Below are positions 18,010 through 56,475 of a stretch of 64,000 nt of DNA, piece by piece; within the stretch, counting starts at the first letter, position 1; every line of letters starts with the position of its first letter. This stretch comes from Clostridia bacterium. Its GTDB lineage: Bacteria; Bacillota; Clostridia; Monoglobales; Monoglobaceae. The position numbers were made by a program, and so were the translations under genes. Below the pieces are notes generated by a model that was not told the DNA's origin, ran no database searches, and saw only the letters and a program-made list of their open reading frames with translations. The stretch is from positions 6,417 to 70,416 of the forward strand of contig JAZNBG010000035.1 of NCBI GenBank assembly GCA_045586925.1, in the 5' to 3' direction.

Positions 18010-18038
18010 GCATACAATCTTTTAAACTGCAAATAATA
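18010..18038 (+). promoter_or_regulatory. Possible forespore-type (sigma-G/F-like) promoter of the spoVA operon
   Basis: GCATA (18010-18014), 17 nt, AATAATA (18032-18038). It resembles the GHATR-N17/18-CATnnTA consensus as I recall it. Weak call. Confidence 0.25.
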
Positions 18039-18066
18039 CTAAAAATACTAAATCGGAGGAAAGTAT

Positions 18067-18516
18067 ATGGATTTTACTAAGCAGGACTATTCCAGTTATA
18101 TAGAACAAAAATCGCCAAACAGCAAGCTGTGGAAAAATATTTTATGTGCCTTTGTAATCGGTGGTATTATCTGCACAATAGGGCAGGCTATAGGCAACAT
18201 TTATAAAATCGTCTTTGGTCTTAATGAAGAAAGCGTAAAGACTGCAGTACCAATAACAATGGTGTTTTTGGGTGCTTTGCTTACGGGGTTTAATGTATAT
18301 AACAAAATTGCAAAAGTTGCAGGAGCAGGAACGTTAGTACCCATTACCGGTTTCGCAAATGCTGTAGTGTCACCTGCAATTGAATTTAAGCGCGAGGGGT
18401 ATGTGCTGGGGGTGGCTGCAAAAATGTTTACCATTGCAGGACCTGTGCTTGTATATGGAATAAATACCTCAATTGTATTGGGACTTTTATATTATCTTTT
18501 TGGGCTGGGGGTGTAG
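18067..18516 (+). CDS. spoVAC: Stage V sporulation protein AC
   Basis: 149-aa membrane protein with SPNSKLWKNILCAFVIGGIICTIGQ and ITGFANAVVSPA, typical of SpoVAC. GGAGG RBS. Confidence 0.9.
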   Translation: MDFTKQDYSSYIEQKSPNSKLWKNILCAFVIGGIICTIGQAIGNIYKIVFGLNEESVKTAVPITMVFLGALLTGFNVYNKIAKVAGAGTLVPITGFANAVVSPAIEFKREGYVLGVAAKMFTIAGPVLVYGINTSIVLGLLYYLFGLGV

Positions 18517-18518
18517 TT

Positions 18519-19142
18519 GTGGATAAAAGACTTGGCGTACAAACTGTAAAAATGGAGCATCCTGTCAATATTCTTTCTGTGGCAAGTGTGGCAGGACAAA
18601 AGGAGTCGCAAGGCCCTTTGGCACAGCATTTTGATATCATTATGGAAGATGCCGAATGGGGCGAGCAAACTTGGGAAAAAACCGAGAGTAAGATGCAAAA
18701 ATCAGCGGTTATACGTGCTGTTGAAAAGGCTAGGGTTGACATTAAGGATATAAACTATCTTTTTGCAGGAGACCTTCTTAATCAGTGTATCAGTTCAACC
18801 TTTGGGCTAATGGATTTTGATATTCCCTTTATGGGAGTTTACGGTGCTTGCTCTACAATGGCAGAGACAATCGGACTTTCGGCAATAGCTATTGACGGCG
18901 GTTTTGCTAGGCTTGCGGCAGCAGTGACGTCAAGTCACTTCTGTACGGCTGAACGGCAGTACAGAAACCCGTTGGAATATGGTGGTCAGCGAACGCCTAC
19001 AGCACAATGGACTGTTACAGGCTCTGGGGCGGCAGTGCTTTCCAAAGAGGGGAAAGGCCCATATGTGACACATTTTACCTCGGGAAAGATTGTTGATTAT
19101 GGCATAAAGGATGCCAATAATATGGGTGCAGCGATGGCACCT
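18519..19142 (+). pseudogene. spoVAD: spoVAD 5' segment (codons 1-208 of a split gene)
   Basis: Thiolase-like SpoVAD N-terminal sequence (GACSTMAETIGLSA, TSSHFCTAERQYR). Homology ends at ...GAAMAP. The ORF then runs 8 unrelated codons to a stop at 19166. Confidence 0.9.
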
Positions 19143-19265
19143 GTAAGTGTTAAACTAACACCATAAGGCGATGTGCTAAATCTCTACAAATTATGCGCTT
19201 TTAAGCCTGATTTTGCATTTTGAGAGGTGATGGTTTAACACTTTTTATTATGGGAAGACGGAGGG

Positions 19266-19625
19266 GTGAAAGTGAGAAAAATTTATACTTATGGGAATGT
19301 ACAAAATTTTATAGAAAGAAGTGATGAAAAACTTAAAAACAAATTTCAAAATATTCTTGCCTATATCTCAAATGAGAAAAACGAACTTCGTGAACCTTAT
19401 GTGAGACATATTTCTCAAAACCGATTTAAAGGACTTTATGAAATAAGACTAAAGGTATCGGGAGCTATGTCAAGAGTTGTCTTTTCAAAGCAAGACGAAA
19501 ATATCATCCTTTTATATGCTTTTTATAAGAATGACAAGAAAGACACCAAAAGAGCACTTGAGCATTCGCTCAGGTTGTTAAATGACACAAGAAAAAATAA
19601 TTACAAGGAGGTACTTATAGCATGA
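19266..19625 (+). CDS. RelE/HigB-type toxin of the Gp49-like (DUF891) family
   Basis: FKGLYEIRLKVSGAMSRVVFSKQDENIILLYAFYKNDKKDTKRALEHSLRLL fits the Gp49/HigB pattern. No HTH antitoxin ORF follows. Confidence 0.6.
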   Translation: MKVRKIYTYGNVQNFIERSDEKLKNKFQNILAYISNEKNELREPYVRHISQNRFKGLYEIRLKVSGAMSRVVFSKQDENIILLYAFYKNDKKDTKRALEHSLRLLNDTRKNNYKEVLIA

Positions 19626-20671
19626 GGAAAATATTTGCAGTTAGTATAGTTTTGATAATTCTGTTGCTCGGGAGCGAAGTTTTTGCAGCATATATTGTTT
19701 CAGGTCAGGATATTTATATCAACGGCTCAAAAGCAGAAATGTCAGCAATAAATTTTAATGATAATAATTATGTGAAACTTCGGGATATTACAAAAGCATT
19801 GAATATTGAGATTACATACAATGCAGAAACAAATACTGTTTCAATCAATACCAACAAGCCTTACACAGAGGAAAATCCGAAAGTTGATTACATAAACGGG
19901 AAATCGTATGCAAGAGAAGATTTCACGCAAAAAGCTAATTCCGGTATTTTTAATGATGTGTATACAAGAGATGCTTATAATGCAATCAGGCAATCTATTA
20001 TTGATATTGCAGAAATTACAAATAATACCGATGAGAATGGATATAATGCAAATTATGAGTATGCTCACTTTGTTGATGACACATCTGACGGAATGGGAGA
20101 AACAATAGAAGCAATGAAATCCGTAACAGCAACAATGTTTGGTTATTACAATTTCAGTTTCGGTTATGAGCCAACAATATCAAACTTCTATGAATATCCC
20201 GGATACCGAATTTGCAAACCACAGATACATAAATACTTTGAACCAGCAAACAATGCAACCGACAGCTTTGTTGCAGAGATATCCAATTTTGCTGACCGAG
20301 AAAAAGTCAAACGGATTGCTGATTATATCTGCGAAAGGGTTGCATATAAGAATGAGAATGTTGCAGGAATAAATAAAGTATTTACAGGCACACCTCCTGT
20401 CAATGGAGTATGCGGTACTTATGCAGATGCATTTGTTTATCTTTGCCAACGAGCAGAAATTCCTTGCATATCAGTTGTTGATGATATTCACGCATGGAAC
20501 GAAGTGTATGTTGACGGCAAATGGTACACTACAGATATAAGCTATTATGATGTAGCAAGAACAGATGAATACCTGTTCCCTAAAAACTATCCTCGCACTG
20601 ATATAAACAAACAGAAAACAAATTTTACAAAAGAATTACTTGTTCCTGGAAGTACAAAAAGTACCGATTAA
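19622..20671 (+). CDS. Secreted transglutaminase-like cysteine-protease-fold protein with an N-terminal copper-amine-oxidase-like stalk domain
   Basis: Signal peptide MRKIFAVSIVLIILLLGSEVFA. NNYVKLRDITKALN stalk motif. Cys-His-Asp core in GVCGTYADAFVYLC ... IHAWNEVYVDGKWYTTD. Confidence 0.6.
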   Translation: MRKIFAVSIVLIILLLGSEVFAAYIVSGQDIYINGSKAEMSAINFNDNNYVKLRDITKALNIEITYNAETNTVSINTNKPYTEENPKVDYINGKSYAREDFTQKANSGIFNDVYTRDAYNAIRQSIIDIAEITNNTDENGYNANYEYAHFVDDTSDGMGETIEAMKSVTATMFGYYNFSFGYEPTISNFYEYPGYRICKPQIHKYFEPANNATDSFVAEISNFADREKVKRIADYICERVAYKNENVAGINKVFTGTPPVNGVCGTYADAFVYLCQRAEIPCISVVDDIHAWNEVYVDGKWYTTDISYYDVARTDEYLFPKNYPRTDINKQKTNFTKELLVPGSTKSTD

Positions 20672-20814
20672 AAACAAATTTTTAATCATATAGGGGGTTG
20701 CAAAAAAATTATTTTTTGGCCAAATTTTTAAATGTGTAGATATTGAAAAAATTGCACACCCCCTAAATGTGCTAAAAACGCAGTAATACAGGCGTTTTCA
20801 GGATGTGCAGAATT

Positions 20815-21137
20815 GTGAATTTTCAGGAAGATTTTGCACTAGTAGGGAGGGTTGCAAAATAGTCTTGAAAATAAGCACTAAAAGTTGTATCAAAGAACAG
20901 AAGTCGCCAAAGCATTTTTGCAGGGACTGTAGTTAAACATTATAATGTAGTTTTGAGTAAAAAGCAGATAAAAGAATTAAAGTTATTGCAAGAGCCTTGA
21001 AGGAAATAAGGAGTATGAACTCTAGAAATAAACTTGCAAAAGACGGAGTATTAGAGTTAAAACACACAACGCTTTGAAGAAAAAAAGAAAAGCAATCCGG
21101 CACCTTTGAAAGAACAAATCTTTTAAGGGTGCTTTTC
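20815..21137 (+). repeat. Direct repeat copy A (~320 bp) ending in a terminator hairpin
   Basis: Aligns with 27833-28161, including the identical blocks CACTAGTAGGGAGGGTTG and AAGTCGCCAAAGCATTTTTGCAGGGA. It ends with the GCACC...GGTGC hairpin (21100-21132) plus a T-run. Confidence 0.8.
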
Positions 21138-21198
21138 ATTACTAAGAAGTCGATATAACATTACAGATTATACTCAAACACAAATTAGTAAATCATAC

Positions 21199-21227
21199 TT
21201 GACTAATTTATTTTTATATGCTATAAT
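21199..21227 (+). promoter_or_regulatory. Sigma-A promoter of the defence gene cluster
   Basis: TTGACT (21199-21204), 17 nt, TATAAT (21222-21227). Confidence 0.55.
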
Positions 21228-21256
21228 GTAGATAACCTAAAATGGAGGTCATGTAT

Positions 21257-22648
21257 ATGTTTATAGGCAGAGAAAGAGAGCTTGAAGCTCTGAATAAGCT
21301 TTATAAATCAAATAAATTTGAATTTGCGGTTATCTATGGCAGACGCCGCGTTGGTAAAACTGCGCTCATAAATGAGTTTATAGATAACAAAAAAGCCATA
21401 TATTTTATGGGTGTTGAAAGCAATGCAAAGCAGAATCTTGAAAACTTCTCAAAAAGCATTATGGAGTTTGCAAGTGGTATTGAAACGGAATCCTCTTTCC
21501 TTTCGTTCCAGGCGGCGTTAGAGTATGTATTCAAGCTTGCGGAAAACGAAAGAATCATTCTTGCTATTGATGAATACCCTTATGTGGCTCGTTCATCAAA
21601 AAGCCTTGCATCTACTTTACAACTTCTAATTGATAAATATAAAGATACATCAAAATTGATGCTTATTCTCTGTGGTTCTTCTATGTCCTATATAGAAGAC
21701 CATGTGCTTGCATATAAAGCGCCTCTTTATGGCAGAAGAACAGCACAAATGAAACTTTTGCCATTTGACTTTGAGGAAACATGCAGATATTTCAAAAATC
21801 TATCTGATGAAGATAAAGCACTTATTTATGGCGTTGCAGGTGGCACACCGCAGTACCTTTTGCAGATGGACGATAAATTAAGCGTTGAAGACAATATAAA
21901 AAACACATACTTAAATCCAATTTCATTCTTGTATGAGGAACCAACTAATCTTTTAAAACAAGAAGTGCGTGAACCGGCTATTTACACTGCGATCATTACA
22001 GCTATTGCAACTGGCTCATCAAGAATGTCAGAGATTTCAAGTAAAGTTGGCGAAGATACAAATGTATGTGCAACTTATATTAAAAACTTGATTAATCTTG
22101 GCATTGTTCAGAAAGAAACACCGTATGGTGAAAAGGCATCTCGTAAGTCAGTTTACTCCATTGAGGACAATATGTTCCGCTTCTGGTATCGCTTTGTTCT
22201 TGAAAACAACTCAATCATTGCACGTGGTGCTGCTGATTTGGTTTACAAAAGAATTGAACCACATTTTTCTAACTATATGGGTAAGGTTTTTGAAGAAATT
22301 TGTAAACAGTATCTTTGGAAACAACTTCTTTCCGGTAACTGCCCTGTAGAGTTTACCTCTCTCGGCCGCTGGTGGGGTAATGATCCGAAAGAAAAGAGCC
22401 AAACTGAAATTGATATTATGGGAGAACAGGATAAAAACACAGCTCTCTTTGCAGAATGTAAGTGGACTAACGAAAAGGTTGACCTCGGTGTTTTAGAAAC
22501 ACTTATAAAACGAGGTAATTTGTTCTCATATAAAACAAAGCATTATTACCTGTTCTCAAAATCAGGATTTACAAAAGGTTGTATTGATAAGGCTAACGAG
22601 ATGAGTAATGTAAGTTTGATAGAGTTTGCGGATATGATGGAGGTATAG
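21257..22648 (+). CDS. AAA+ ATPase (Arch_ATPase type) with a C-terminal DUF234 nuclease-like domain
   Basis: The opening MFIGRERELEAL and Walker A GRRRVGKTAL, plus Walker B LAIDEYPY. The C-terminus EIDIMGEQDKNTALFAECKW resembles a PD-(D/E)xK motif. Confidence 0.65.
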   Translation: MFIGRERELEALNKLYKSNKFEFAVIYGRRRVGKTALINEFIDNKKAIYFMGVESNAKQNLENFSKSIMEFASGIETESSFLSFQAALEYVFKLAENERIILAIDEYPYVARSSKSLASTLQLLIDKYKDTSKLMLILCGSSMSYIEDHVLAYKAPLYGRRTAQMKLLPFDFEETCRYFKNLSDEDKALIYGVAGGTPQYLLQMDDKLSVEDNIKNTYLNPISFLYEEPTNLLKQEVREPAIYTAIITAIATGSSRMSEISSKVGEDTNVCATYIKNLINLGIVQKETPYGEKASRKSVYSIEDNMFRFWYRFVLENNSIIARGAADLVYKRIEPHFSNYMGKVFEEICKQYLWKQLLSGNCPVEFTSLGRWWGNDPKEKSQTEIDIMGEQDKNTALFAECKWTNEKVDLGVLETLIKRGNLFSYKTKHYYLFSKSGFTKGCIDKANEMSNVSLIEFADMMEV

Positions 22649-22649
22649 T

Positions 22650-24737
22650 ATGGCTAAGAAAAAGAATAAACATGAAGCATTGTCTGTTGGAAGATTAATT
22701 AACGAAGTTTTAGTCGATCAGCTAGGAATCCCATTTCGAAACATAGTTAATGATACAACTTTTTCAGATTTTACAGGTTCTAAAAGACCAGATATTTTAA
22801 TAGGAAATTTTGAATATACTGGATCAAACAATGAACAATATATAAAAAATCTTGTTGCATATGCAGAAGCAAAAGACATTACATGCAAAGTGGATGATAC
22901 TGAGTGGAAAGATGCGGTAAATCAAGGTAAAGAAAAGGCTGCAAAATTAGGATTACCATTTTTCGGTGTAACAAATTGTAAAACAACATATTTTTACAAT
23001 TTAAAAACCGGAAATAGAATTTCTTTAAACGGTAATGTCATCTATGAATTTCAGACATTGGATGTTTTTAGAATAATAAAAAAGCAATTAACCGAAAAAC
23101 CAAATGTTGATGATATAAAAATAGGTATAGATTCACTATCCTCTGTTTCAGAAGCTGTTTTCAACAAAAAACTTTGGGAGCTAAAAGAAGAATATCGTGC
23201 GATAGATTTCGAAAATAATACACAAAAAATAGATTTTACTGTAGGAATGATTGCGTTAGAATATTATGAAGAAAAAGCTGAGATAGATGGAACTAAAGAT
23301 AATTCTATGCAGTATTGGTCTACATGTAAGGCGATGATTCCCAATCCATATACATATGAAAACTCAAACACAATAACAACGATTTTAGTAACATATATAG
23401 ATAGACTTACTGGCGAAGAGTCGGAGTTTAAAGAATTTTCTCCGCTTTTAAAGAAGGTAAAGGAATTAATAAGCGGTCAGAAACCTATGATTAATTCTAA
23501 ACGTTTGCAATCTATATATTTTATTATTGATTCTATGCGACCTCTGCATGGTACGGGCTTTGACTTGTTCGGTGCAGTGTATGAAAATTTTGCAAACACA
23601 AAAGAGAAGAAGGATTTTGGTGAGTATTTTACAAGGCGACATTATGCACATGTTTTTGCGGAGTTATTGTTGCAGAAAGAAGATATTTTTAATTCCGAAT
23701 ATAAATTTTCTATTTTAGACCCAGCTTGTGGAACTGGCGGAATGCTTACAGAAAGTTTTAAGGTTTTGAAAAACAACTATGAATCTTCGGGTACATTTGA
23801 TCAAGAAGCACAAACTTTTTTGTCCGAAGAGTGCTTTTATGGAATAGATGTAAGAGGAGAAAATATTTCAAGAACCCGTTTAAATATGTTTTTGGTTGGT
23901 GATGGGCACACAAACATGCACTCTGATGACTCATTAAACCCAACAACAAAAACTGGGAAGAAATTTTTGAATAAAAAATATAAATATATCATAACAAACC
24001 CTCCTTATGGACCGGGTACAGAATTAGCAAACACAGATAGTATAAACTCTTATAGGTTCGAAATAGCGTTTATCTGTAGAATTATAGATCTCCTAGAAAG
24101 AAATGGTCAAGCGTGTATAATCACCCCTGATGGCATTTTGGAAAACCCTTCTTTGAAAAAGTTTCGAAATGAGATTTTGCAAACATGTGAAATATATGCA
24201 ATAGTTTCTTTACCCAAGTTTGCTTTTGCACCTTATACAAAAGAAAAAACATACGCATTATTCATTAGAAAACTACATGATAGAGCGTCCTCGGAGCAAA
24301 CCAATAAAAAATTGCCTACTGGGAAATTCCAATCAACTCCAATTTGGATGTATATCATTGATAACGATGGCTTTGCTAATTCTGATAAGAGATTCCCTAC
24401 TAGACTTAGAGATTCAAGTCAAAGATGGCAGCATGATGAGGTTTCGGGTTATGCTGATAGCGAAGGTATAGAAAGAAAAAGTATTCTTGAACAGCGATGG
24501 TTAAATTTTGACGATACAGCTACGGGTGGAACATTGTGGATTGATGAAGATGGCATTGAAGTAAAAATGAGAAAAGGTGGCTTTGTACAAATTGACTCTA
24601 TTCGAAATAATGATTTTTTGACTTTACTTCCAGAATATTATCTAAGACCATATGAACCTAAGTTTATAACAGAGGAACAATTTAATGAAAGTATGGATAA
24701 TATTGAACGTGAGATAAAAGAGTTTTTTGGACTGTAG
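22650..24737 (+). CDS. Fused restriction endonuclease / N6-adenine methyltransferase (BcgI-A-like, type IIB/IIG)
   Basis: N-terminal PD...ExK candidate (RPDILI ... AYAEAKD). Methyltransferase motif I LDPACGTGGML and motif IV ITNPPYG. No HsdR gene nearby. Confidence 0.6.
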   Translation: MAKKKNKHEALSVGRLINEVLVDQLGIPFRNIVNDTTFSDFTGSKRPDILIGNFEYTGSNNEQYIKNLVAYAEAKDITCKVDDTEWKDAVNQGKEKAAKLGLPFFGVTNCKTTYFYNLKTGNRISLNGNVIYEFQTLDVFRIIKKQLTEKPNVDDIKIGIDSLSSVSEAVFNKKLWELKEEYRAIDFENNTQKIDFTVGMIALEYYEEKAEIDGTKDNSMQYWSTCKAMIPNPYTYENSNTITTILVTYIDRLTGEESEFKEFSPLLKKVKELISGQKPMINSKRLQSIYFIIDSMRPLHGTGFDLFGAVYENFANTKEKKDFGEYFTRRHYAHVFAELLLQKEDIFNSEYKFSILDPACGTGGMLTESFKVLKNNYESSGTFDQEAQTFLSEECFYGIDVRGENISRTRLNMFLVGDGHTNMHSDDSLNPTTKTGKKFLNKKYKYIITNPPYGPGTELANTDSINSYRFEIAFICRIIDLLERNGQACIITPDGILENPSLKKFRNEILQTCEIYAIVSLPKFAFAPYTKEKTYALFIRKLHDRASSEQTNKKLPTGKFQSTPIWMYIIDNDGFANSDKRFPTRLRDSSQRWQHDEVSGYADSEGIERKSILEQRWLNFDDTATGGTLWIDEDGIEVKMRKGGFVQIDSIRNNDFLTLLPEYYLRPYEPKFITEEQFNESMDNIEREIKEFFGL

Positions 24738-24746
24738 GAGGAATAA

Positions 24747-25901
24747 ATGAAATATCAAGTAAAAGATTATCCTATTTGTGATGCTATCTCTTGCATGAGT
24801 GGAAATTCTGGTTTAACAGAGGAATTTATATATAGTACGACACAGATAAAGGGTAAAAGGTATATAGTTTTATCCAGTGCTTTAGAAGAGGAAACAATGA
24901 TGGGCGAAGTTCCGATGTGTACTTTAAACGATAAACCAATTAAAGTCTTTGAAAATAAGGAAGGGCTACTGGTTGCCAGAAATGGCAGAGCCGGGACAAC
25001 AAGATATTTAACCCCAGGGCGATATACAATTAATGATCATGCATATATCCTTTCGGTTAAAAAAGGTTGTCCATATAAAATTGATCTGAGATGGTTGGCT
25101 ATTCAATATAAAACTGAATTTCTTTCATATTCATCAGCTTCAGATAATGGCACATGGAACAAAACTGGCTTTTTTAAAAATGTTACAATAGACGTTCCTG
25201 ATATTGATGAGCAGATACGAATCGTTAATATGGTAGAAAAGGCACAACAAACTATAGAAAAGATAAAAATAATTAAGAAGGATTTGCTTAAAGCATTTGA
25301 ACGCATAATTTCTGTCGAATATTCTAAATATGTTAAACGTAATATACCAATTAATGATGTTTTAGATTGTATGAGTGGCAATTCGGGATTAACATCCGAA
25401 TTCATATATAGCACTTTACATAAGCCAGGTAAAAGATTCAAAGTTTTGTCTGGAGCAACACAAGAAGAGAATTTATTAGGAGAAATCCCCAAATGTGCAA
25501 TAGACGATAAAATGATTAAAACTTTTGAAGATAAAGAAGGTCTCCTAGTTGTTAGAAAAGGGAAAGCAGGTGCTACAAAGTTTCTGCCAAAGGGTAACTA
25601 TACAATAAATGATGATGCATATATCTTGTCTGTAAAGCCGGACTTTGAAAAGTTGGTTGATATTAGGTGGATAAAGATTCATTGTAAAACAGACTTTATG
25701 AATTATTCATCATCTTCGGACAATGGTACATGGAACAAAACAGGCTTTTTTAAAAATGTTACAATAGACATTCCAGCGTTGGAAGAACAAAAACGTGTTG
25801 CAGCAACATATGAGAAGGCCGAAAAGTATTTTGAAAAAATACAAAAAATCGAAAAGCAACTAACAGAATTGTTGGATAAAAGGCTCTGTTCAGAATTGTA
25901 A
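24747..25901 (+). CDS. HsdS-like specificity subunit with two homologous target-recognition domains
   Basis: The two halves (aa ~10-190 and ~200-384) align throughout, for example CMSGNSGLTEEFIYST / CMSGNSGLTSEFIYST and SDNGTWNKTGFFKNVTID in both. Confidence 0.75.
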   Translation: MKYQVKDYPICDAISCMSGNSGLTEEFIYSTTQIKGKRYIVLSSALEEETMMGEVPMCTLNDKPIKVFENKEGLLVARNGRAGTTRYLTPGRYTINDHAYILSVKKGCPYKIDLRWLAIQYKTEFLSYSSASDNGTWNKTGFFKNVTIDVPDIDEQIRIVNMVEKAQQTIEKIKIIKKDLLKAFERIISVEYSKYVKRNIPINDVLDCMSGNSGLTSEFIYSTLHKPGKRFKVLSGATQEENLLGEIPKCAIDDKMIKTFEDKEGLLVVRKGKAGATKFLPKGNYTINDDAYILSVKPDFEKLVDIRWIKIHCKTDFMNYSSSSDNGTWNKTGFFKNVTIDIPALEEQKRVAATYEKAEKYFEKIQKIEKQLTELLDKRLCSEL

Positions 25902-26018
25902 TGATAGTCAGATGTGTGAAGTTTTTTGATTTGCATATACCAAGAGCTCAAAAAAACATAGACTTTAGATAAGATTGATGTTTAAGTGATTGAACTCTTC
26001 TTACAGGAGGGAATATAA

Positions 26019-26660
26019 ATGTGGAGAAAGTTCCGTTGGGATATGTTTGTTACATCATTTATCCCATTATGGTTTTCTATTATTGTTTTTAATCTATGGA
26101 AAGTAGTAGAAATTTCAATTGATGTTTGGGATAAGAAAAGCAAGTACATTGATAACATAGTAAATTGCATTGAAAAAAGCTATGTTGAACTCGGTGTTAT
26201 GCTTGTTGTTATTTTACTTGTTTGGATTAGTATTAGTGGAATTAGCTCTTTTATAAAGGAACGTAAGTCTACAGAAAATAATCCTAAAGGGAAAATAATA
26301 CGAGCAACTAAAGCTAACAAACTTTCTTCTGAGTTTTTGTTAGCATACATACTTCCTATGATAGCTTTTGACTTTGGAGAAATAAAGGATATAGTTTTGT
26401 TTGTTATATACTTTTCTGTATTGGCCTTTTTGTGCATAAGAAACAATAATATTTATACAAATATTCTTTTGGAATTTAAGGGTTATAAAATGTACAACTG
26501 CGATATTGAGTGTTCGGTGCTTGAAAAGAAAAAGATTTATCACGACAGCTTGATAATAAGTGAAGTAGACTTAACTCAGATGGAAGAAAATGAGATACCA
26601 TATTGGGATTTTGACAAATATATTTATATAGCAATAAACGAGGTGGAAGATAGTGAGTAA
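26019..26660 (+). CDS. Four-TM membrane protein, KwaA-like (candidate Kiwa component)
   Basis: 213 aa with 4 predicted TM helices. It overlaps the next gene by 8 nt. Size and architecture match KwaA as I recall it, but no sequence comparison was possible. Confidence 0.35.
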   Translation: MWRKFRWDMFVTSFIPLWFSIIVFNLWKVVEISIDVWDKKSKYIDNIVNCIEKSYVELGVMLVVILLVWISISGISSFIKERKSTENNPKGKIIRATKANKLSSEFLLAYILPMIAFDFGEIKDIVLFVIYFSVLAFLCIRNNNIYTNILLEFKGYKMYNCDIECSVLEKKKIYHDSLIISEVDLTQMEENEIPYWDFDKYIYIAINEVEDSE

Positions 26661-27585
26661 AACCGTACTAAAGACAATATGTGAATGTGGAAAAAATGGT
26701 CAATATTCATGGAGTTTGTTTTTCTTCAAAACAGACAAAAGAAATAAACAGCCTTATAAAATGTTTAAGGTTCGTTTTAAAAACGCTAATTATCTTACTA
26801 CATATGCAGCAAACTTAATTGAGACTGTTGATAAGTTTCAAATTGAACCTATAAGCGATGTCCAGGATTACGATGGTGAGAATTCAAAAGTATCATGTGA
26901 TAAGATTGAATTGTCTAATCAACTAATTAGCGAACAGTGGACCTTATTCACCGAAGCTGTTGCAAGTGCCGCTGATGGTAAAGCCGACGGAAGAATTAAT
27001 GGTTATATATTGTACGGACAATCTTTAAAAGAAGATGACAAGCCTATTACACTTGTTAAAGTGGCAAATCCGATAACAAAGCTTACAAACAAAAAAAGTG
27101 TAATATTCACGACTACTGCAGATGATGAACTGGAATTAATGTCTGATGATGTATGTAGGCTTTATCTTACTACTGACTTTATTGTTTTTGATGGAACCAT
27201 GTATACATTCAACCATACATTTGAAACAATCTTTAATCTTGAGAAAACAATGGCTAAGGTGAAGAATGATGCTATAGAAGAGATATTAAGTACAAATGCT
27301 TTTTCTAATCCTGAAGAATTTAAAGCATTGGCAGGAAAATACAAATCATCACGCACCTTTATAACTCTTAAAAAAGAACGTGTAAATAGAATTAAAGATA
27401 AACGCAGTAGGAAGAAAGTCGCAGAAATGCTCAAACTTCCACTTGGTAGTGATGGAGAGTTTAATATAACAAAACCAGAAGATGCGTCTCTTTTATTGCG
27501 ATATCTGTGTTTTAAAATATTCCAGGATAATGAGACAATGGATGTGCTTGAGGCTAATACTGTAAACAAATTAAATCTTGCATAA
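26653..27585 (+). CDS. Soluble 310-aa protein, KwaB/DUF4868-like (candidate Kiwa component)
   Basis: Translationally coupled to the membrane protein upstream. Size is typical of KwaB. The assignment rests on architecture only. Confidence 0.35.
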   Translation: MSKTVLKTICECGKNGQYSWSLFFFKTDKRNKQPYKMFKVRFKNANYLTTYAANLIETVDKFQIEPISDVQDYDGENSKVSCDKIELSNQLISEQWTLFTEAVASAADGKADGRINGYILYGQSLKEDDKPITLVKVANPITKLTNKKSVIFTTTADDELELMSDDVCRLYLTTDFIVFDGTMYTFNHTFETIFNLEKTMAKVKNDAIEEILSTNAFSNPEEFKALAGKYKSSRTFITLKKERVNRIKDKRSRKKVAEMLKLPLGSDGEFNITKPEDASLLLRYLCFKIFQDNETMDVLEANTVNKLNLA

Positions 27586-27832
27586 GGTTCAATAAAAAGA
27601 CATGGAGAAATCAAACTCCACAGCTTTGCAGGAATATATGTTTTCTGAAACAAAATGAATATAAAATATACATTCATTTTAGGTGAGAAATATACAAATT
27701 TTACTCCCGAGGGGGTTGGGAAAAACGGAAATTTTAGCGTTTTTTGAAAAGTAGTCAAAAAAGCATAACAACTCCACATATCAAATGCCGCTTATCCCTA
27801 GTAAAATAGCCACATTCAGGACTTGTAAAAAT

Positions 27833-28161
27833 TTAATTTTCAGACCACTTTTCCCACTAGTAGGGAGGGTTGGGGAAAACGCTTTTTGGTGTAATATTAA
27901 AAACGGTAAAAAATACACAAGTCGCCAAAGCATTTTTGCAGGGAATGTAGTTAGACGTAACGAGGTAATTTTGAGTGAAAACCAGTTAAACGTACAAAAG
28001 TAGTTACAAGAGCTTTGGAGGAAATAGCGAGAACAAAACTTGCGGATATAGTTAGCAAAAGACGGAGCAATAAAGTTGAAACACACAACGATTTGAAGGA
28101 ATAAAACATAAATAAATTCAGCACCGTTGAAAGATTTAAAATCTTTTGAGGGTGCTTTTTC
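27833..28161 (+). repeat. Direct repeat copy B (~320 bp) ending in a terminator hairpin
   Basis: Homologous to 20815-21137. It ends with a GCACC...GGTGC hairpin (28121-28155) plus T5, immediately upstream of the resolvase promoter (TGaTATAAT, hexamer 28193-28198). Confidence 0.8.
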
Positions 28162-28233
28162 TATAAACAAAATAATAACACCTGTCCGGTGATATAATAT
28201 CATAAAAAGCCATTATGGTTTGGAGGTGTTGTT

Positions 28234-28908
28234 ATGACATATGGATATGTTAGAGTGTCCTCAAGTGATCAAAATGTAGACAGACAATTAATTGAAATGG
28301 AAGGATTAACAATCCCCGTACAAAATATTTTTATAGATAAACAATCGGGTAAAGACTTTAAGCGCCCACAATATATTAAATTGCTTGAGGTTCTTAAAAA
28401 AGGTGATTTATTATATGTAAAGTCAATAGACCGTTTGGGGCGAAACTATAAAGAAATACTGGAACAATGGCAAATGCTGACTAAAGAAATGGAAGTTGAT
28501 GTTGTTGTAATAGATATGCCACTTTTAGATACACGAACTGCTAAAGATTTGCTCGGTACATTCATAGCGGACTTGGTTTTACAAGTGCTTTCTTTTGTGG
28601 CTCAAAGCGAGCGTGAAAACATAAAGAAACGCCAAGAAGAAGGCATAAAAGCTGCCAGACTTCGTGGCGTTAAATTTGGACGACCTGTTATTCCCGTGCC
28701 GGATAATTTTGAGTTTCTTGTTGAACAATGGGAACATGGGGAAATATCCGCCGATTATGTGGCTCAGAAAAGCGAAATGAGTGAATCAACCTTTTATAGA
28801 AGATTAAAAGAATTAAGGAAAAACACAAAACAAAAATCACTGTCAAATGGTACACTTTTTGACAGTGATTATTTTTTGTTGATATATACTGTTAAAAACA
28901 GATTTTAA
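28234..28908 (+). CDS. Small serine recombinase (resolvase/invertase family)
   Basis: Catalytic N-terminus YGYVRVSSSDQNVDRQ, SIDRLGRN, and a C-terminal HTH (SESTFYRRLKE). The last ~25 codons read through a terminator hairpin. Confidence 0.85.
   Translation: MTYGYVRVSSSDQNVDRQLIEMEGLTIPVQNIFIDKQSGKDFKRPQYIKLLEVLKKGDLLYVKSIDRLGRNYKEILEQWQMLTKEMEVDVVVIDMPLLDTRTAKDLLGTFIADLVLQVLSFVAQSERENIKKRQEEGIKAARLRGVKFGRPVIPVPDNFEFLVEQWEHGEISADYVAQKSEMSESTFYRRLKELRKNTKQKSLSNGTLFDSDYFLLIYTVKNRF
28835..28878 (+). terminator. Rho-independent terminator overlapping the resolvase 3' end
   Basis: 13-bp perfect stem AATCACTGTCAAA / TTTGACAGTGATT followed by ATTTTTTG. Confidence 0.7.
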
Positions 28909-29051
28909 CACAAAAATTATACTATATTCCCCTTGAAAAGTCAATTAAATGATTTTATTTCTTACCAATCTCCAGTTGAACTGCCTTTGTCAAAAAGTGT
29001 ACTTTTTGGTAAAGCTATCAAGTTATTAGCTAATGGAGGTGTTCGACAAGA

Positions 29052-29552
29052 ATGGAAAACAACAGAGAACAGGAACTGAGGAAGCATAGATGCTGTTTTA
29101 CAGGTCATAGACCTGATAAAATGATACAAGGCGAAAAAGAGATTAAACCGCTACTTGAGGCGGCTATAGATAAGGCAATAGCTGAAGGTTATGTAACTTT
29201 TTTAACGGGCATGGCAATGGGGACAGATATATGGGCTGCTGAAATAATTTTAGATAGAAAGAAAAAGAACAAAAATTTACATCTTATTTGCGCACTGCCG
29301 CATCCTGGCTTCGATAGCAAAAGAAGTGTTGCAGAGAAAATACGGTTTGCAAAAATACTAAAGAAAGCAGATATAGTAAGAGAAATAAGCAATCACTTCT
29401 TCAAGTCATGTTACCAAAAACGAAATGAATGGATGGTTGACAGATCAAATTTGGTTATAGCGGTATTCAACGGAGAACCAAGTGGGACTAAAAATACGGT
29501 CATTTACGCTCAAAGGAAGGGCGTAGAAATCAATAATGTTTTAAAAAACTAA
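29052..29552 (+). CDS. SLOG-fold protein of the DUF1273/YpsA family
   Basis: CCFTGHRP, FLTGMAMGTDIWAAE and the ALPHP pattern resemble B. subtilis YpsA-type SLOG proteins. Confidence 0.6.
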   Translation: MENNREQELRKHRCCFTGHRPDKMIQGEKEIKPLLEAAIDKAIAEGYVTFLTGMAMGTDIWAAEIILDRKKKNKNLHLICALPHPGFDSKRSVAEKIRFAKILKKADIVREISNHFFKSCYQKRNEWMVDRSNLVIAVFNGEPSGTKNTVIYAQRKGVEINNVLKN

Positions 29553-29637
29553 ATATACAAATACAACAAATCATTGACAACTTCATTATATTATTTTAAA
29601 GCAGTGGTAGAATATATACATAAAGGAGTTGTCGAAT

Positions 29638-32569: not shown

Positions 32570-32589
32570 AAGAGGTGAAAAGACAGAAT

Positions 32590-38044: not shown

Positions 38045-38045
38045 A

Positions 38046-38614: not shown

Positions 38615-38632
38615 GAATTTGGAGGTGGAAAT

Positions 38633-39121: not shown

Positions 39122-39145
39122 ATAAAATTTTAGGAGGATTTTAAA

Positions 39146-39445
39146 ATGGCTACAATTAAAGTTGATTCAACAGTAATGAGAGACAAAGCAGGCACATTTA
39201 AGAATGTTGCTAACACAATAAAAAATTTAACAGATGAAATGACTCAGGAGATAGAAAGTTTACGTTCAGCATGGGAAGGCGAATCCGCTGAAGCAACTGT
39301 ATCAAAATTTAAAAGTTTAGCTTCAACATTTGAAGAAAAGTTCAATACAATTAACCAGTATGCATCTTTCCTTGAGGAAGCAGCTAATGCTTATGACGAT
39401 GCAGAAAAGGCTGTCGCTCAGGGAGCAGAAGGCACACAGGCTTAA
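39146..39445 (+). CDS. esxA: WXG100-family protein, EsxA-like (paralogue 3)
   Basis: 99 aa with central W-E-G (SAWEGESAEA) and a C-terminal YDDAE (YxxxE) motif. Strong AGGAGG RBS. Confidence 0.8.
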   Translation: MATIKVDSTVMRDKAGTFKNVANTIKNLTDEMTQEIESLRSAWEGESAEATVSKFKSLASTFEEKFNTINQYASFLEEAANAYDDAEKAVAQGAEGTQA

Positions 39446-43653: not shown

Positions 43654-43698
43654 AAGCAATATGTTGATAATTTTGAAATTAAGAAAGAAGGGATAAAG

Positions 43699-52674: not shown

Positions 52675-53535
52675 ATGTGTAAAAACATATACAAGAACTT
52701 GGAAATACAGTACAAGAAATTATTCCGCCATTTAAAGGTCGGAAGTTTCAAAACAAGAGAACGTTACGGAAAGGCGTTTAAGCGATTCATGGTATTTTTG
52801 GCAAGAGAATATCATTTGCAAAAGTTGGCAAACATTTCAGAAAAGCATATATACGCTTATGTAAGCTATATGCAAAATAAAGGTTTGTCTGCCTCAACAA
52901 TAAAGACCGAGCTTGCGGCAATACGATTTTTCCACGACAGTATGCCGTACACAAGAAGCACCTTGCCGACAAATGATGAACTCGAACTTGAAAAACGTAA
53001 TTTCGGCGGAGTTGACAGAACTTGGTCCGAAATAGAGTTTGCAAAAATGCTTGCAGCATCAGTGATGGGAGAATATCCGGAGTATTCGGGAATGCTTTAC
53101 CTTGGAAGATATGCCGGACTTCGTTTGGAAGAATGTTTCCGCATTGACACCAACGATGCTAAAAATGCTCTTGAAACGGGACAGCTACTGGTTAAAGGCA
53201 AAGGTGGACTCACAAGGTATGTACCGATTTGCTATCAACTTGAGATTGTATTTCGTGATATGTTAAAGATTACACCTATCGGACAAAAGCTATTTGTAAG
53301 ACCGTATGACAAGACACATCTTGCAATGAAGCGTTTGCAAAATTTTATTGCATACCACAGAAAAGAGTTTACTGAAAACAGAATTACCTTTCATGGACTT
53401 CGACATACATATGCTCACGAACAGTATGAGAAGTTCATAAAAGAAGGTTGTTCGGAATTTGATGCCCGAAAAAAGGTATCGGAGCTGCTCGGTCATCATC
53501 GTGATGATGTAACGAGAATATATTTAGCCGAATAA
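52675..53535 (+). CDS. Tyrosine recombinase/integrase
   Basis: SAM-like N-terminal domain (HIYAYVSYMQNKGLSASTIKTELAAIRFF). GLRLEE (Arg), HGLRHTYA (His-x-x-Arg) and LGHHRDDVTRIYL (His, Tyr). Confidence 0.8.
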   Translation: MCKNIYKNLEIQYKKLFRHLKVGSFKTRERYGKAFKRFMVFLAREYHLQKLANISEKHIYAYVSYMQNKGLSASTIKTELAAIRFFHDSMPYTRSTLPTNDELELEKRNFGGVDRTWSEIEFAKMLAASVMGEYPEYSGMLYLGRYAGLRLEECFRIDTNDAKNALETGQLLVKGKGGLTRYVPICYQLEIVFRDMLKITPIGQKLFVRPYDKTHLAMKRLQNFIAYHRKEFTENRITFHGLRHTYAHEQYEKFIKEGCSEFDARKKVSELLGHHRDDVTRIYLAE

Positions 53536-53582
53536 AAATTTGAATATTTGGAAATTATTAGATATAGCGAAAGGAGCTTTGT

Positions 53583-53789
53583 ATGATAAGTACTTCTGAT
53601 ATCGATAATTTCGTAGATTTGAAAAATTTGGCTATTGATAAAACAAAACCAATTGAGGAGCGGCTAAAGCAATTTATCACGGATGTAAAAAATCCGTATA
53701 TGGTAAGAGTTGGCGATACACTGGTACGAATAGAATTTACCGGTGGAAGAAACTTTTCAGATGCTTTAACTGCAGCTTTCGGTGCATAA
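53583..53789 (+). CDS. 68-aa protein of unknown function immediately upstream of the large serine recombinase (possible directionality or accessory factor)
   Basis: AAAGGAG RBS. The suggested role rests on position only. Confidence 0.3.
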   Translation: MISTSDIDNFVDLKNLAIDKTKPIEERLKQFITDVKNPYMVRVGDTLVRIEFTGGRNFSDALTAAFGA

Positions 53790-53813: not shown

Positions 53814-53842
53814 TTGAAGTTTAGGCGGCGGTATGATATAAT
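53814..53842 (+). promoter_or_regulatory. Sigma-A-like promoter of the large serine recombinase gene
   Basis: TTGAAG (53814-53819), 17 nt, TGaTATAAT (hexamer 53837-53842). Confidence 0.45.
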
Positions 53843-53897
53843 TTTTAATGTAGAGATTAGCATATCGCCGTCAAAATAAAAGACGGAGGTACGCGAT

Positions 53898-55580
53898 ATG
53901 ACAAATACAAAATATGCGATGTACTTAGAGCAGCCTCCAGTATTTAAAATACAGTGGAGAGCTGCTCTTTATATAAGACTTTCAAAAGAAGATGGCGACA
54001 AAGGAGAAAGTAACTCTGTAACATCGCAGAGAGAAATATTAAAAGAATTCTTAAAGCTTCGCCCTGACATTGAACTCTATGACATTTATGTAGATGATGG
54101 TTGGTCGGGTACAAACTTTGACAGACCTGATTTTACACGAATGATGGAAGATATTTATTCCGGCAATGTAAATTGTGTTATAGTAAAGGATTTATCGAGA
54201 TTCGGAAGAAACTATACTGATAGCGGAAATTATCTTGACAATGTGTTTGTGAGGCTCAGAGTTCGTTTTATTGCACTTAATAACGGTGTTGATACCGCAT
54301 CAAACAATATGAACGCTGCAACACAGTGTATTTCTGTAGGTGTTACTAATGTTATCAACGAAAGTGTTGCCGCAACAACTTCGGTGAATGTTCGCGGAAC
54401 ACTGAATGTAAACCGTGCTCAAGGTAAATTTATAGGTTCTTTTCCAACATACGGATATTTAAAAGATCCTAATGACCATCATAAACTTATTGTTGATGAA
54501 GAAGTTGCGCCTGTTATTCGGTCAATATTTGAACGATTTGTTGCAGGTAAAAGTATAATCGGCATTGCAAAGGAACTAAACGAAGAAGGTATTCCTAATC
54601 CTTCAATGTATAAGAAACTTAAAGGTTTTAATTATAGACATCCCGTAGGAAAAAGCAATGACGGATTATGGCCGGACAGTTCTGTGCGAAGAATACTGCG
54701 AAATGAAATGTATATCGGCAATATGGTGCAAGGTAAAAATACAACAATAAGTTATAAGATTAAGCAATGCAGGCCAATTCCTAAAGAGGATTGGATTATT
54801 GTTGAAAACACTCACGAGGCTATTGTAAGTAAAGAGATATTTGAAAAAGCACAGTCTCTTTTCAACAAAAACATACGAGTCGCACCACAGAAAAAAGAAG
54901 TAGATTTATTTTCTGGTTTTGTTCGCTGTGCTGATTGTCATAGAACTATGAATAAGAAAACCAATGTCCATTCTTATGCAACATATCATTATTATCGTTG
55001 TTCTACTGCAAGAAAGATGAAAAAAAGTGCTTGTGGTAATCATACGATAAGAATTGATAAGCTGGAAGAAGCGGTATTAGTTGTTATTCAGAACATGGTT
55101 GATGTGGCAATTGAAATGGATGATATTCTAAAGAGAATCAATTCCAATGGTGAAAGAAAAAAAGAATCCAAACATCTTAAAAAGGCAATCGAAACACAAA
55201 CTGCTGAAAGGGATAAATGCAAACGAATGATGGTTGATTTGTATCCTGACTGGAAGAATGGCATTATTACTCAAGAGGAATATTTAATGTTAAAGCAGGG
55301 TATTTCAGAAAAAATAGAAACTCTTGATAAAATGATAGAAAATCTCACCGAAACAGCAAGAAGTTACGAGGAAGGAGTAAATGATGAAAATGAATTTATA
55401 GCCCATTTCAAGGCTCATGGCAAAATAAAAGCTTTAACCCGAAATCTTCTGCTTGAGTTGGTTGACGAGATTTTAGTTCACGAGGGCGGAGATATTACCG
55501 TGAAATTCAAGTTTAACGATGCCTATAAAGAAGTTATGGAATATATTGAAATGAATAAGGATGTTATTAAGACTGCTTAA
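53898..55580 (+). CDS. Large serine recombinase (SpoIVCA/SprA/phage-integrase type)
   Basis: 560 aa. Resolvase catalytic domain (AALYIRLSKEDGDKGESNSVTSQ, VKDLSRFGRN), a recombinase domain, a zinc-ribbon (CADCHRTM...YYRCST..ACGNH) and a coiled-coil tail. It lies 130 bp from the right junction. Confidence 0.9.
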   Translation: MTNTKYAMYLEQPPVFKIQWRAALYIRLSKEDGDKGESNSVTSQREILKEFLKLRPDIELYDIYVDDGWSGTNFDRPDFTRMMEDIYSGNVNCVIVKDLSRFGRNYTDSGNYLDNVFVRLRVRFIALNNGVDTASNNMNAATQCISVGVTNVINESVAATTSVNVRGTLNVNRAQGKFIGSFPTYGYLKDPNDHHKLIVDEEVAPVIRSIFERFVAGKSIIGIAKELNEEGIPNPSMYKKLKGFNYRHPVGKSNDGLWPDSSVRRILRNEMYIGNMVQGKNTTISYKIKQCRPIPKEDWIIVENTHEAIVSKEIFEKAQSLFNKNIRVAPQKKEVDLFSGFVRCADCHRTMNKKTNVHSYATYHYYRCSTARKMKKSACGNHTIRIDKLEEAVLVVIQNMVDVAIEMDDILKRINSNGERKKESKHLKKAIETQTAERDKCKRMMVDLYPDWKNGIITQEEYLMLKQGISEKIETLDKMIENLTETARSYEEGVNDENEFIAHFKAHGKIKALTRNLLLELVDEILVHEGGDITVKFKFNDAYKEVMEYIEMNKDVIKTA

Positions 55581-55586
55581 ACAAAA

Positions 55587-55618
55587 GGCTCCTGCAGGTA
55601 TAATAAAATGCAGGAGTC
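55587..55618 (+). terminator. Candidate terminator after the recombinase gene
   Basis: GGCTCCTGCA / TGCAGGAGTC stem (one G-U pair) with a 12-nt loop and a weak T tail. Confidence 0.4.
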
Positions 55619-55711
55619 TTACTTTGTGAATTTTCACATAAAAACACACGTAGAATTATAGAAAACAAACAAAAATAAAAAATTTATGGTGTACCCTTGA
55701 CATTTTCCCCT

Positions 55712-56104
55712 GCGGCGGCAGATACCTTGGCAGCGCATTTTAAAGACACGGGCAGACAACCTGACTTTTATGACCTGATTTTATCGGGTGATTTAGGAAT
55801 TGTGGGCAAGGCGGCATTAATTGACCTGATGTACGAAAAAGGATACAGAATATCAAGTAATTATGACGATTGCGGTTGTATGATTTTTGACATAGACAAT
55901 CAGGATATGCATGCTGGCGGTTCGGGTTGCGGGTGTCTGGCGGTAACGTTGTGCGGATATATTATGGATATTATTAAGGCGGGAAAACTGAAAAACGTGC
56001 TTTTTATGGGGACGGGAGCATTACTCAGTCCCACATCAACGCTGCAAGGCGGAACAATTCCATCGGTGGCACACGCGGTGGCAATTACTGCAGAGAGGGG
56101 GTAG
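55712..56104 (+). pseudogene. spoVAD: spoVAD 3' segment (codons 209-338 of the split gene)
   Basis: From AAADTLAAHFKDTGRQPDFYDLILSGDL onward it matches the SpoVAD C-terminal half (GGSGCGCLAV, TGALLSPT). There is no RBS or plausible own start. It is in frame with the 5' segment if 19142 is joined to 55712. Confidence 0.9.
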
Positions 56105-56109
56105 AACAA

Positions 56110-56475
56110 ATGGAAATGTTTATGGAATATTTTAATGCTTTCTGGGTTGGGGGTGTATTTTGTGCAATTGCTCAAATTTTGATTGACAAGACCAAAATGA
56201 CCCCTGCCAGAATTCTGGTGTCATTTGTGGTTGCAGGCGTGATACTTGGCGGTGTGGGCATATATGAAAAAATTGTTGATTTTGCGGGGGCGGGTGCAAC
56301 TGTGCCCATTATCGGATTCGGAAACACCTTGGCAAAGGGCGTTTTAAAGGGGATTCGGCAGAATGGCTTCTTGGGAGTGTTTACAGGTGGGGCGTCGGCA
56401 GCAGCAGGCGGAATTGCGGCATCGATTTTCTTTGGGTTTTTGGCGGCAATTATTTTCAAGCCGAGGCAGAAATAA
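56110..56475 (+). CDS. spoVAE: Stage V sporulation protein AE (SpoVAEb type)
   Basis: 121-aa membrane protein with AFWVGGVFCAIAQILID and VPIIGFGNTLAKG, which is paralogous to SpoVAC. Confidence 0.88.
   Translation: MEMFMEYFNAFWVGGVFCAIAQILIDKTKMTPARILVSFVVAGVILGGVGIYEKIVDFAGAGATVPIIGFGNTLAKGVLKGIRQNGFLGVFTGGASAAAGGIAASIFFGFLAAIIFKPRQK

Follow-up and report, generated by a model that had tools for sequence, protein, structure and literature searches.

We analyzed a 64,000-nucleotide stretch of genomic DNA, hereafter the window (contig JAZNBG010000035.1 of assembly GCA_045586925.1, from a Clostridia bacterium of the Monoglobaceae), in which the sporulation gene spoVAD is split by an island that carries a large serine recombinase (LSR) gene near its right end. 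Open reading frame (ORF) calls together with junction mapping against empty sites showed that spoVAD is cut at codon 208/209 by a 36,569-bp insertion (19144-55712), and that four base pairs, CCTG, are the sole sequence common to both junctions (19140-19143 and 55709-55712). In silico joining of 18519-19142 to 55712-56104 gave a full-length SpoVAD of 338 amino acids, collinear end to end with the solved structures 3LMA (E 5e-94) and 3LM6 (E 1e-91), the junction falling within the conserved NMGAAMAP|AAADT stretch of the protein. As found in the window, the 5' spoVAD ORF encodes 215 amino acids (18519-19166), the last seven being a foreign tail read from the island. Intact SpoVAD relatives of 338 amino acids number in the hundreds in the protein database, the closest being 94% identical.

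Empty sites with an intact spoVAD were found in two loci, L001 (a JGI metagenome; SpoVAD 94% identical) and L002 (GCA_045646865.1; 92%). Both share with the window the gene order malQ-spoVAC-spoVAD-spoVAE-miaB-ylbF-mutS-mutL-miaA around the insertion, and their DNA is the same as the rejoined window sequence, base for base, over the junction. Because the rejoined SpoVAD is complete and these two loci match it over the junction, the insertion is real and precise; the interruption of spoVAD claimed in an earlier note on this DNA is thus confirmed by the rejoined protein and by the uninterrupted related loci. The nearest empty-site genome is 89% identical in flanking DNA, and the comparison is therefore one between species, not within one. 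Base composition also sets the island (about 33% G+C) apart from its flanks (about 41%).

The attachment (att) sites are as expected for an LSR, since inverted arms lie about 22 bp from a small core. The island arm of attL carries an inverted copy of the ATGGTG motif of the right arm, and the reconstructed attP has inverted ATGGTG-containing arms (TTATGGTGT ... ACACCATAA) at a distance of about 22 bp on each side of the core; left arms related to that of the window are present in L133 and L127. Besides splitting spoVAD, the insertion separates spoVAE from the operon promoter. The sporulation genes spoIIP, spoVAC and spoVAE are intact in the window. Neither half of spoVAD contains stops or frameshifts, the ratio of nonsynonymous to synonymous substitution (dN/dS) is 0.05-0.10, lineage-specific changes are not in excess, and 3' spoVAD fragments are uninterrupted in every locus read.

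Features of the split spoVA locus and its island, in window coordinates
Feature	Position	Strand	Basis
Forespore-type (sigma-G/F-like) promoter match before spoVAC, GCATA-N14-GCAAATAATA	18010-18038	+	Forespore matrix, 14.4 bits
spoVAC, 149 aa, intact	18067-18516	+	ORF; L001/L002 orthologues carry PF03862
spoVAD 5' part, residues 1-208	18519-19143	+	ORF; alignment to solved SpoVAD
attL: core CCTG (19140-19143) and island-side arm TAAGTGTTAAACTAACACCATAAGG	19140-19168	.	Empty-site mapping
Inserted island, 36,569 bp	19144-55712	+	Composition; boundaries against empty sites
Left cargo block	19266-30477	+	Pfam, PADLOC, NCBIfam
Right cargo block	30839-51294	+	Pfam; NCBIfam for EssC
Second tyrosine recombinase gene, variable, outside the conserved module	52675-53535	+	Pfam; other genes here in relatives
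Forespore-type promoter match before DUF6870, GAATA-N15-GGAAATTATT	53530-53559	+	Forespore matrix, 12.4 bits; comparative
DUF6870 gene, 68 aa, candidate directionality factor	53583-53789	+	PF21757, E 3.5e-18
Sigma-A-type LSR promoter, extended -10 (TTGAAG-17-TGaTATAAT)	53814-53842	+	Same architecture in all family members examined
LSR gene, 560 aa	53898-55580	+	PF00239, PF07508, PF13408 (Resolvase, Recombinase, Zn_ribbon_recom); weak DUF4368
attR: island-side arm ATGGTGTACCCTTGACATTTTCC and core CCTG (55709-55712)	55686-55712	.	Junction mapping; arms of relatives
spoVAD 3' part, residues 209-338, no own ribosome-binding site visible	55713-56104	+	ORF; alignment
spoVAE, 121 aa, intact, cut off from the operon promoter	56110-56475	+	ORF; L001/L002 orthologues

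The LSR has the domain set and size of a serine integrase, acts at short att sites with imperfect inverted arms and has left no long target duplication. Its closest solved chains are the catalytic domain of TnpX (2mhc, E 2e-26) and SprA of SPbeta (E 8e-20), and it also matches the solved serine recombinases TP901-1 and A118. The gene ends 132 nt before the 3' spoVAD fragment, a layout that is repeated in its relatives. These number in the thousands, and among the clusters listed about 30 lie at 77-93% identity and a dense group at 72-73%. For one relative, P0192 (72% identical), the assembly collection lists 1,265 blocks. At nine of the ten P0192 places read, the recombinase gene is followed about 155 nt on by a 3' spoVAD fragment that begins at the same codon; the spoVAD allele was different at each place and four distinct neighborhoods were read beyond the fragment. 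The tenth place is off-target, in an ABC permease gene.

A metagenome scan gave further spoVAD insertions of this LSR family. The right island arm, ATGGTG(C/T)ACCCTTGACA, is conserved in 29 loci, and in 27 of them spoVAD comes next, in about 20 distinct alleles and at the same codon; the other two are pseudo-sites whose core is similar, one of them in cas5. Altogether, the spoVAD-targeting LSR clade was found in more than 1,000 assemblies from many species. More distant LSRs (44-59% identical; L094, L126, L134) lie 1.3-1.9 kb from a 3' spoVAD fragment with the same first residue, while in L127, L133 and L190 the recombinase module sits at the opposite end of the element, directly after the 5' spoVAD fragment. 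The last of these is a complete 9-kb element whose right arm is identical to that of the window and whose left arm is nearly so. Judging from these loci, the conserved spoVAD sequence coding NMGAAMAP|AAADT is the attB of the LSR clade, with rare off-target sites. By published criteria, repeated disruption of a domain at the same site by a tight integrase clade points to regulated gene integrity (PMC7192596).

Some LSR genes with 99.7-100% identity at the DNA level sit in spoVAD fragments that are only 63-76% identical. Because near-identical genes lie in such divergent alleles, the sequences indicate that the elements moved between species or genera very recently; the same contrast (LSR at least 99.7% identical) marks the spoVAD-type elements as active. 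Their cargo is wholly different from one element to the next and includes Cas9, Hachiman, Fic, RecD2 with YqaJ, and ABC transporters. The unit formed by the LSR and the small DUF6870 gene before it is a module that mobilizes varied defense cargo.

Several single loci of the family deserve a mention. The two off-target insertions that were mapped, L085 7829-7870 (ABC permease gene) and L108 6873-6930 (type I-C cas5 gene), lie in pseudo-sites that resemble the spoVAD core (CCCCGGC..., CCCCTGCCGCCGC). A complete Cas9 gene is present in L126 (1598-5668) and a Hachiman HamA-helicase pair in L191 (1540-5396). In L190 (410-8676; GCA_045660065.1), spoVAC is separated from the 5' spoVAD fragment by a second block of about 8.5 kb that encodes a tyrosine recombinase and has four Peptidase_M73 genes, and the spoVA operon appears to be interrupted twice there.

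We scanned 33 ORFs of the window island with Pfam, PADLOC and NCBIfam. The left cargo block is of defense type and encodes a Gp49-like toxin, a transglutaminase-like protein, a PDC-S27-type ATPase (21242-22648), a YpsA/SLOG protein, an N6-methylase (22650-24737) with a specificity subunit (24747-25901), the Kiwa proteins KwaA (26019-26660) and KwaB (26653-27585), a small serine recombinase (28234-28908) and a tyrosine recombinase (29629-30477). The right block holds type VII secretion genes, namely EssC (32575-37239), a YukD-like protein and three WXG100 proteins (38318-39445); a match of 1020 bits to TIGR03928 identifies this FtsK-like ATPase as EssC of type VII secretion. It also encodes a TetR regulator, a PP2C phosphatase and two Ser/Thr kinases (41863-45585), an SPFH protein, a TPR protein, two beta-lactamase-like proteins, zinc-ribbon proteins, a YidD-like protein and several secreted or membrane proteins.

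None of the 33 ORFs gave a Pfam match to capsid, tail, terminase, portal or lysis genes, the region 19150-44000 matched none of 50,697 phage records by megablast, and IMG/VR viral contigs held no LSR relative more than 44% identical; a prophage was therefore rejected. Likewise, Pfam, PADLOC and NCBIfam revealed no relaxase, coupling protein or type IV secretion genes among these ORFs, and the island thus lacks the hallmarks of an integrative conjugative or mobilizable element. It is a non-viral, cargo-carrying integrative element moved by its LSR. As to the methylation genes of the left block (22650-25901), they form a type I-like methylase and specificity subunit whose restriction subunit is absent from the island, and the PDC-S27-type ATPase and the Kiwa pair adjoin them.

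In C. difficile, spoVAC-AD-AE has a mapped sigma-G promoter and its expression drops in sigF and sigG mutants (PMC3789822; PMC3738446). To score promoters we used a two-block forespore matrix built from 39 mapped C. difficile sigma-F/G promoters (PMC3789822), which are not this lineage's own. The match before spoVAC in the window scored 14.4 bits, compared with a mean of 12.3 for the training set, and the motif is kept in L001, L002 and L003; a related pattern lies upstream of spoVAC in 12 of 43 relatives, where shuffles would give 1.7. Because a sigma-G promoter drives the operon in C. difficile and a conserved, high-scoring motif precedes spoVAC here, it is reasonable to take spoVAD as needed and expressed in the forespore in the window lineage as well.

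This agrees with the earlier note, which had described the spoVA operon of B. subtilis as sigma-G dependent and forespore-specific; the mapped C. difficile promoter is of the same kind (PMC3789822, PMC3738446). Both the spoVAC motif and the vegetative-looking LSR promoter that it reported are where it placed them, but the spoVAC motif is not weak, as had been said, given its 14.4 bits and its conservation in L001-L003. The dilemma it raised, that splitting a forespore gene puts restoration of the gene at odds with inheritance of the element, is a real one, and spoVAE is cut off too.

By profile search, about 80 related loci have the DUF6870 gene directly upstream of the LSR gene, with LSR identities as low as 37%. 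The family has no NCBIfam name and no mention was found in literature full-text searches. Profile search gave no PDB relative for it, and an alignment-based model (predicted local distance difference test, pLDDT, 79) had no PDB fold match; a single-sequence model (pLDDT 56) was too poor for use. The forespore-type match before the gene ends 23 nt from its start codon, and homology with relatives upstream of DUF6870 starts exactly at the -35 element. With the same matrix, 15 matches in the window reach 11.5 bits or more, compared with 17.6 for block shuffles, so that the window motif stands at chance level and the promoter argument is therefore a comparative one.

For this comparison, we divided the family into clade A, with 33 unique DUF6870 upstream regions, LSRs mostly at least 55% identical and spoVAD as the target wherever visible, and its sister clade B, with 30 unique upstream regions, LSRs 37-47% identical and DUF6870 likewise present. 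With the sigma-F/G matrix, 22 of the 33 clade A regions beat their own shuffles (p<=0.05; mean z 2.35), whereas matrices for sigma-E and for sigma-K gave background levels (2/33 each) and clade B gave 1/30. Among 22 distinct motif variants of clade A, 64% reached 10 bits and 20 reached 7 bits, compared with 3.4% reaching 10 bits among 235 upstream regions of other genes in the same loci. The spoVAC promoter of the same lineage, at 14.4 bits, served as an internal positive control. The variants have GAATA, GCATA, GTATA, GTATT or GTTTA as their -35 element and, for example, GGCAATAATT, GCCAAAAATA or GTCAAGAATG as their -10 element; their spacers cannot be aligned, and in most of them 17-30 nt separate the end of the -10 element from the start codon. 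Most begin their -10 element with G and only half finish it with A, and by the distinction drawn in PMC3789822 the putative promoter for this reason leans towards the sigma-F type.

Clade B has its own target. Its loci (L137-L157, e.g., L153 11632-11760; LSR 43-44% identical) show insertions in ABC-transporter ATPase genes of many hosts, in the part that codes for the Walker A motif and reads LGPNGAGK on the opposite strand. The forespore-type motif is missing from clade B modules, which have a mild excess of sigma-E-like matches (9/30). Elsewhere in the family, foreign insertions of about 190-280 bp are found in non-coding parts of the module (L093, about 6950-7235; L189, about 9490-9680). 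They part the promoter from its gene, both of which are kept, and with its terminal inverted repeats the L093 insertion resembles a miniature transposable element.

The leader of the LSR gene can form a hairpin over the ribosome-binding site (window 53823-53897, CGCCGTC...GACGGAGG), which is conserved in other loci, for instance as CCATCA...TGATGG in L083 (5930-6000). Since the conserved hairpin covers the ribosome-binding site, it suggests that LSR synthesis is held low rather than free-running. A longer pairing joins a stretch that overlaps the sigma-A -10 element (GGCGGCGGTATG) to the start of the leader (CATATCGCCGTC), with compensatory changes among family members, and it may link translation of the LSR to transcription that reads through from the DUF6870 promoter. 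When short and long LSR leader transcripts were folded, no clean on/off switch emerged, and Rfam gave no family match.

In SPbeta, a small directionality gene with a sporulation promoter, sprB, adjoins the constitutively expressed LSR gene sprA (PMC4191935), and CD1234-CD1231 of the C. difficile skin element is arranged in the same way (PMC5025042). As the window module shares this layout, with a promoter class that fits the target gene's compartment, we read DUF6870 as a candidate forespore directionality factor. The module would comprise the forespore-type promoter, the DUF6870 gene, the sigma-A promoter, the LSR gene and attP. While cells grow, the sigma-A promoter would supply the LSR, which, lacking a partner, would only integrate, integration being the default reaction of LSR-type enzymes; the island would stay in spoVAD, which is dispensable for growth. 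In the forespore, RNA polymerase with sigma-F/G would transcribe DUF6870, whose product would act as a recombination directionality factor and turn the LSR to excision. This would rejoin spoVAD and relink spoVAE to the operon promoter in the compartment that needs SpoVA for uptake of dipicolinate (DPA). The excised circle would be retained in the spore, the forespore being a non-dividing cell, and after germination, with DUF6870 gone, the sigma-A-driven LSR would re-insert the island. Persistence and re-integration of the circle are needed because the forespore genome is inherited, yet the islands are found stably integrated.

From these comparisons we infer that the motif functions as a forespore promoter, that the direction of recombination is set by DUF6870, that excision occurs in the forespore and that the circle re-integrates. 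In our estimate, forespore-timed excision driven by DUF6870, followed by re-integration after germination, comes close to an even chance of being correct without quite reaching it. The fuller proposal of a reversible germ-line rearrangement, in which sigma-F/G-driven DUF6870 would represent a new family of directionality factors, excision would switch on dipicolinate import and the circle would re-integrate on outgrowth, is tentative and stands somewhat further below even.

Several observations weigh against this proposal. An exact 23-mer of the island-side left arm, which would also catch attP, had no match in the metagenome collection, and all junctions read among the 29 arms were attL or attR, none being of attP type. 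The closest solved relative of the LSR catalytic domain is TnpX, an enzyme that excises and inserts without a partner. DUF6870 resembles no known directionality factor in sequence or predicted fold, its role being read from its position alone. Its promoter motif in the window (12.4 bits) is by itself at chance level in 64 kb of AT-rich DNA, and the matrix was derived from C. difficile, not from the window lineage. Because the insertions are recent, the intact halves of spoVAD are not proof of selection. To our knowledge, excision during sporulation in an inherited genome is without precedent, and it requires the re-integration step. Reversible excision, one of the options listed in the earlier note, gains the clade-restricted forespore-type match before DUF6870, but no excision product to go with it.

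The interrupted sporulation genes described up to 2023, sigK, spsM, spoVFB, spoVR, gerE and yabG, are all expressed in the mother cell (PMC4191935, PMC5595907, PMC10747680), in keeping with what the earlier note had said of known intervening elements. The window island lies inside the coding sequence of a sporulation gene and att recombination would, in silico, restore the frame. It fits the gene-intervening class of skin, SPbeta, vfbin, vrin, gin and yin, in its LSR-driven form, in every testable structural respect except the mother-cell target with excision in a terminal cell, spoVA being forespore-expressed in C. difficile. The closest parallel is SPbeta in spsM of B. subtilis, where an LSR at the element's edge likewise splits a sporulation gene and precise excision restores the frame (PMC4191935, PMC5499854). 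The window LSR has SprA among its nearest solved relatives, and in both cases a small gene with a sporulation-type promoter, here a promoter match, lies beside an LSR gene of constitutive type. However, SPbeta is a functional phage, whereas phage genes are absent from the island; DUF6870 has no sequence relationship to SprB and its predicted fold has no PDB match; and spsM is a mother-cell sigma-K gene with excision in the terminal mother cell, where the island combines a forespore gene with a forespore-type match.

The same difference separates the island from skin in sigK (SpoIVCA in B. subtilis; CD1231 with CD1234 in C. difficile), for which cargo differs and the recombinase alone is shared (10.1101/2022.02.25.481979). 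A sporulation-sigma promoter drives the C. difficile directionality factor CD1234 (PMC5025042), which is listed among the mapped sigma-E promoters. Target and excision of skin are in the mother cell, which dies, so that inheritance is safe; here, restoration would take place in the inherited genome. The element gin in gerE of B. cereus ATCC 10987 is, like the island, a non-phage island with several recombinase genes that splits a sporulation gene (PMC5595907), the window island having one large serine, one small serine and two tyrosine recombinases. Unlike spoVAD, gerE encodes a mother-cell regulator, and gin is found in few strains as opposed to the more than 1,000 assemblies of the spoVAD-targeting clade.

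Active lysogeny (the Listeria comK prophage and the Streptococcus mutL element) is the only case described of excision and re-integration in a reproducing cell, with the element serving as a reversible switch of a split gene as in the cycle proposed for the island (PMC7192596, PMC4191935). It differs in having no link to sporulation or to a compartment-specific sigma factor and in its other integrases and control genes. Re-integration is described there, whereas for the window island it is proposed. Finally, the LSR resembles TnpX and TndX (Tn4451, Tn5397) in its catalytic domain (match 2mhc), its weak C-terminal DUF4368, its Clostridia hosts and its non-phage elements. TnpX and TndX need no partner and use many target sites. 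Unlike these enzymes as we know them, the spoVAD clade targets a single codon position in a single gene and always carries DUF6870.

Alternatively, spoVAD could be nothing but a conserved, growth-dispensable integration site whose loss is a tolerated cost. Carriers would then make viable spores that are poor in DPA and less heat-resistant, the island would not be removed in sporulation, and it would excise occasionally for horizontal transfer only. Spores of a C. difficile spoVAC mutant lack DPA but are stable and germinate normally (PMC4959285), and for this reason the cost is perhaps small for gut anaerobes. Clostridial spoVA mutants form spores that are stable and germinate but are heat-sensitive (PMC4959285), and the DPA or spore defect listed in the earlier note is a possible outcome. 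The spread between species is very recent, so long-term costs may still be unpaid; the off-target insertions L085 (ABC permease) and L108 (cas5) are ordinary integrase behavior, and the exact left-arm search gave no excision product in the metagenome collection. What such an integration leaves unexplained is the forespore-type match before DUF6870 in the spoVAD-targeting clade only, and the agreement between promoter class and the compartment of the target gene. Moreover, mid-gene disruption by a dedicated integrase clade is unusual for neutral 'safe harbour' sites (PMC7192596). We regard this explanation, the main rival, as plausible but less likely than the proposed cycle. The suggestion in the earlier note that the element is simply an island using spoVAD as its attB holds for the position, which is used in at least 20 host alleles; 'simply an island' probably says too little.

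The island might also excise stochastically, in any cell and at low frequency, through a TnpX-like LSR, which would yield a mix of heat-resistant island-free spores and heat-sensitive carrier spores. Among solved structures, TnpX is nearest to the LSR catalytic domain, and both TnpX and TndX act without a directionality factor. Their partner independence, as we know it, the constitutive-type LSR promoter and the common occurrence of empty sites in relatives all agree with such excision. It does not account for the universal DUF6870 partner and its promoter, and the conserved leader hairpin suggests that LSR synthesis is held low. Stochastic excision is in our view unlikely.

That the source genome compensates with another intact spoVAC-AD-AE set at a different place, making the split copy irrelevant, is quite unlikely. 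Extra spoVA operons do occur on mobile elements in Bacillus, such as spoVA2mob on Tn1546 (PMC5133452), and gut mobile elements with spoVA genes have been reported (PMC6907783). However, the best 80 SpoVAD loci from genomes of related species, the source not being among them, showed one copy per assembly, and the split copy occupies the conserved ancestral neighborhood. Exact look-ups of SpoVAC and of the LSR gave no match. The sole apparent exception, L047/L062 from the metagenome-assembled genome CAMMCS01, consists of separate contigs that are syntenic and near-identical; we rejected it as a true spoVAD-spoVAE duplication, since the two contigs most likely come from two strains binned together. 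A non-sporulating host in which spoVAD is a relic and a conserved landing site is very unlikely: P0192 is named in one source after Oscillibacter valericigenes, a species described as non-spore-forming, but spoIIP, spoVAC and spoVAE are intact in the window, the spoVAD halves have neither stops nor frameshifts and a dN/dS of about 0.1, the spoVAC promoter motif is conserved and the 3' spoVAD fragments are uninterrupted in all loci read.

As far as we know, all described sporulation- and heterocyst-linked DNA rearrangements take place in cells that die, which makes inheritance of the element safe. Together, a common, dedicated element family in a forespore gene and a forespore-type accessory promoter match suggest that this terminal-cell rule may not be general, and the spoVAD family points to a reversible switch in an inherited genome. 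There is a substantial chance that the mechanism is new. If the proposed forespore excision is true, sporulation-linked gene surgery would extend beyond the terminal mother cell and be widespread in human and animal gut Oscillospirales. The heat resistance and dipicolinate content of spores affect the transmission of gut anaerobes, and a single LSR variant of the family is present in more than 1,200 assembly blocks. The LSR and DUF6870 would also make a candidate new pair of recombinase and directionality factor, with defined attachment sites, as possible tools.

The insertion explains why spoVAD is annotated as 'split' or 'mobile' in metagenome-assembled genomes. Literature full-text searches turned up no paper in which spoVAD serves as an attachment site, and this use of the gene seems new on that basis. 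A survey of gut mobile elements (PMC6907783) lists islands 'carrying' SpoVAD and SpoVAEb (GI175 in Roseburia intestinalis and GI153 in Faecalibacterium); these elements might be inserted into or beside spoVA rather than be carriers of it.

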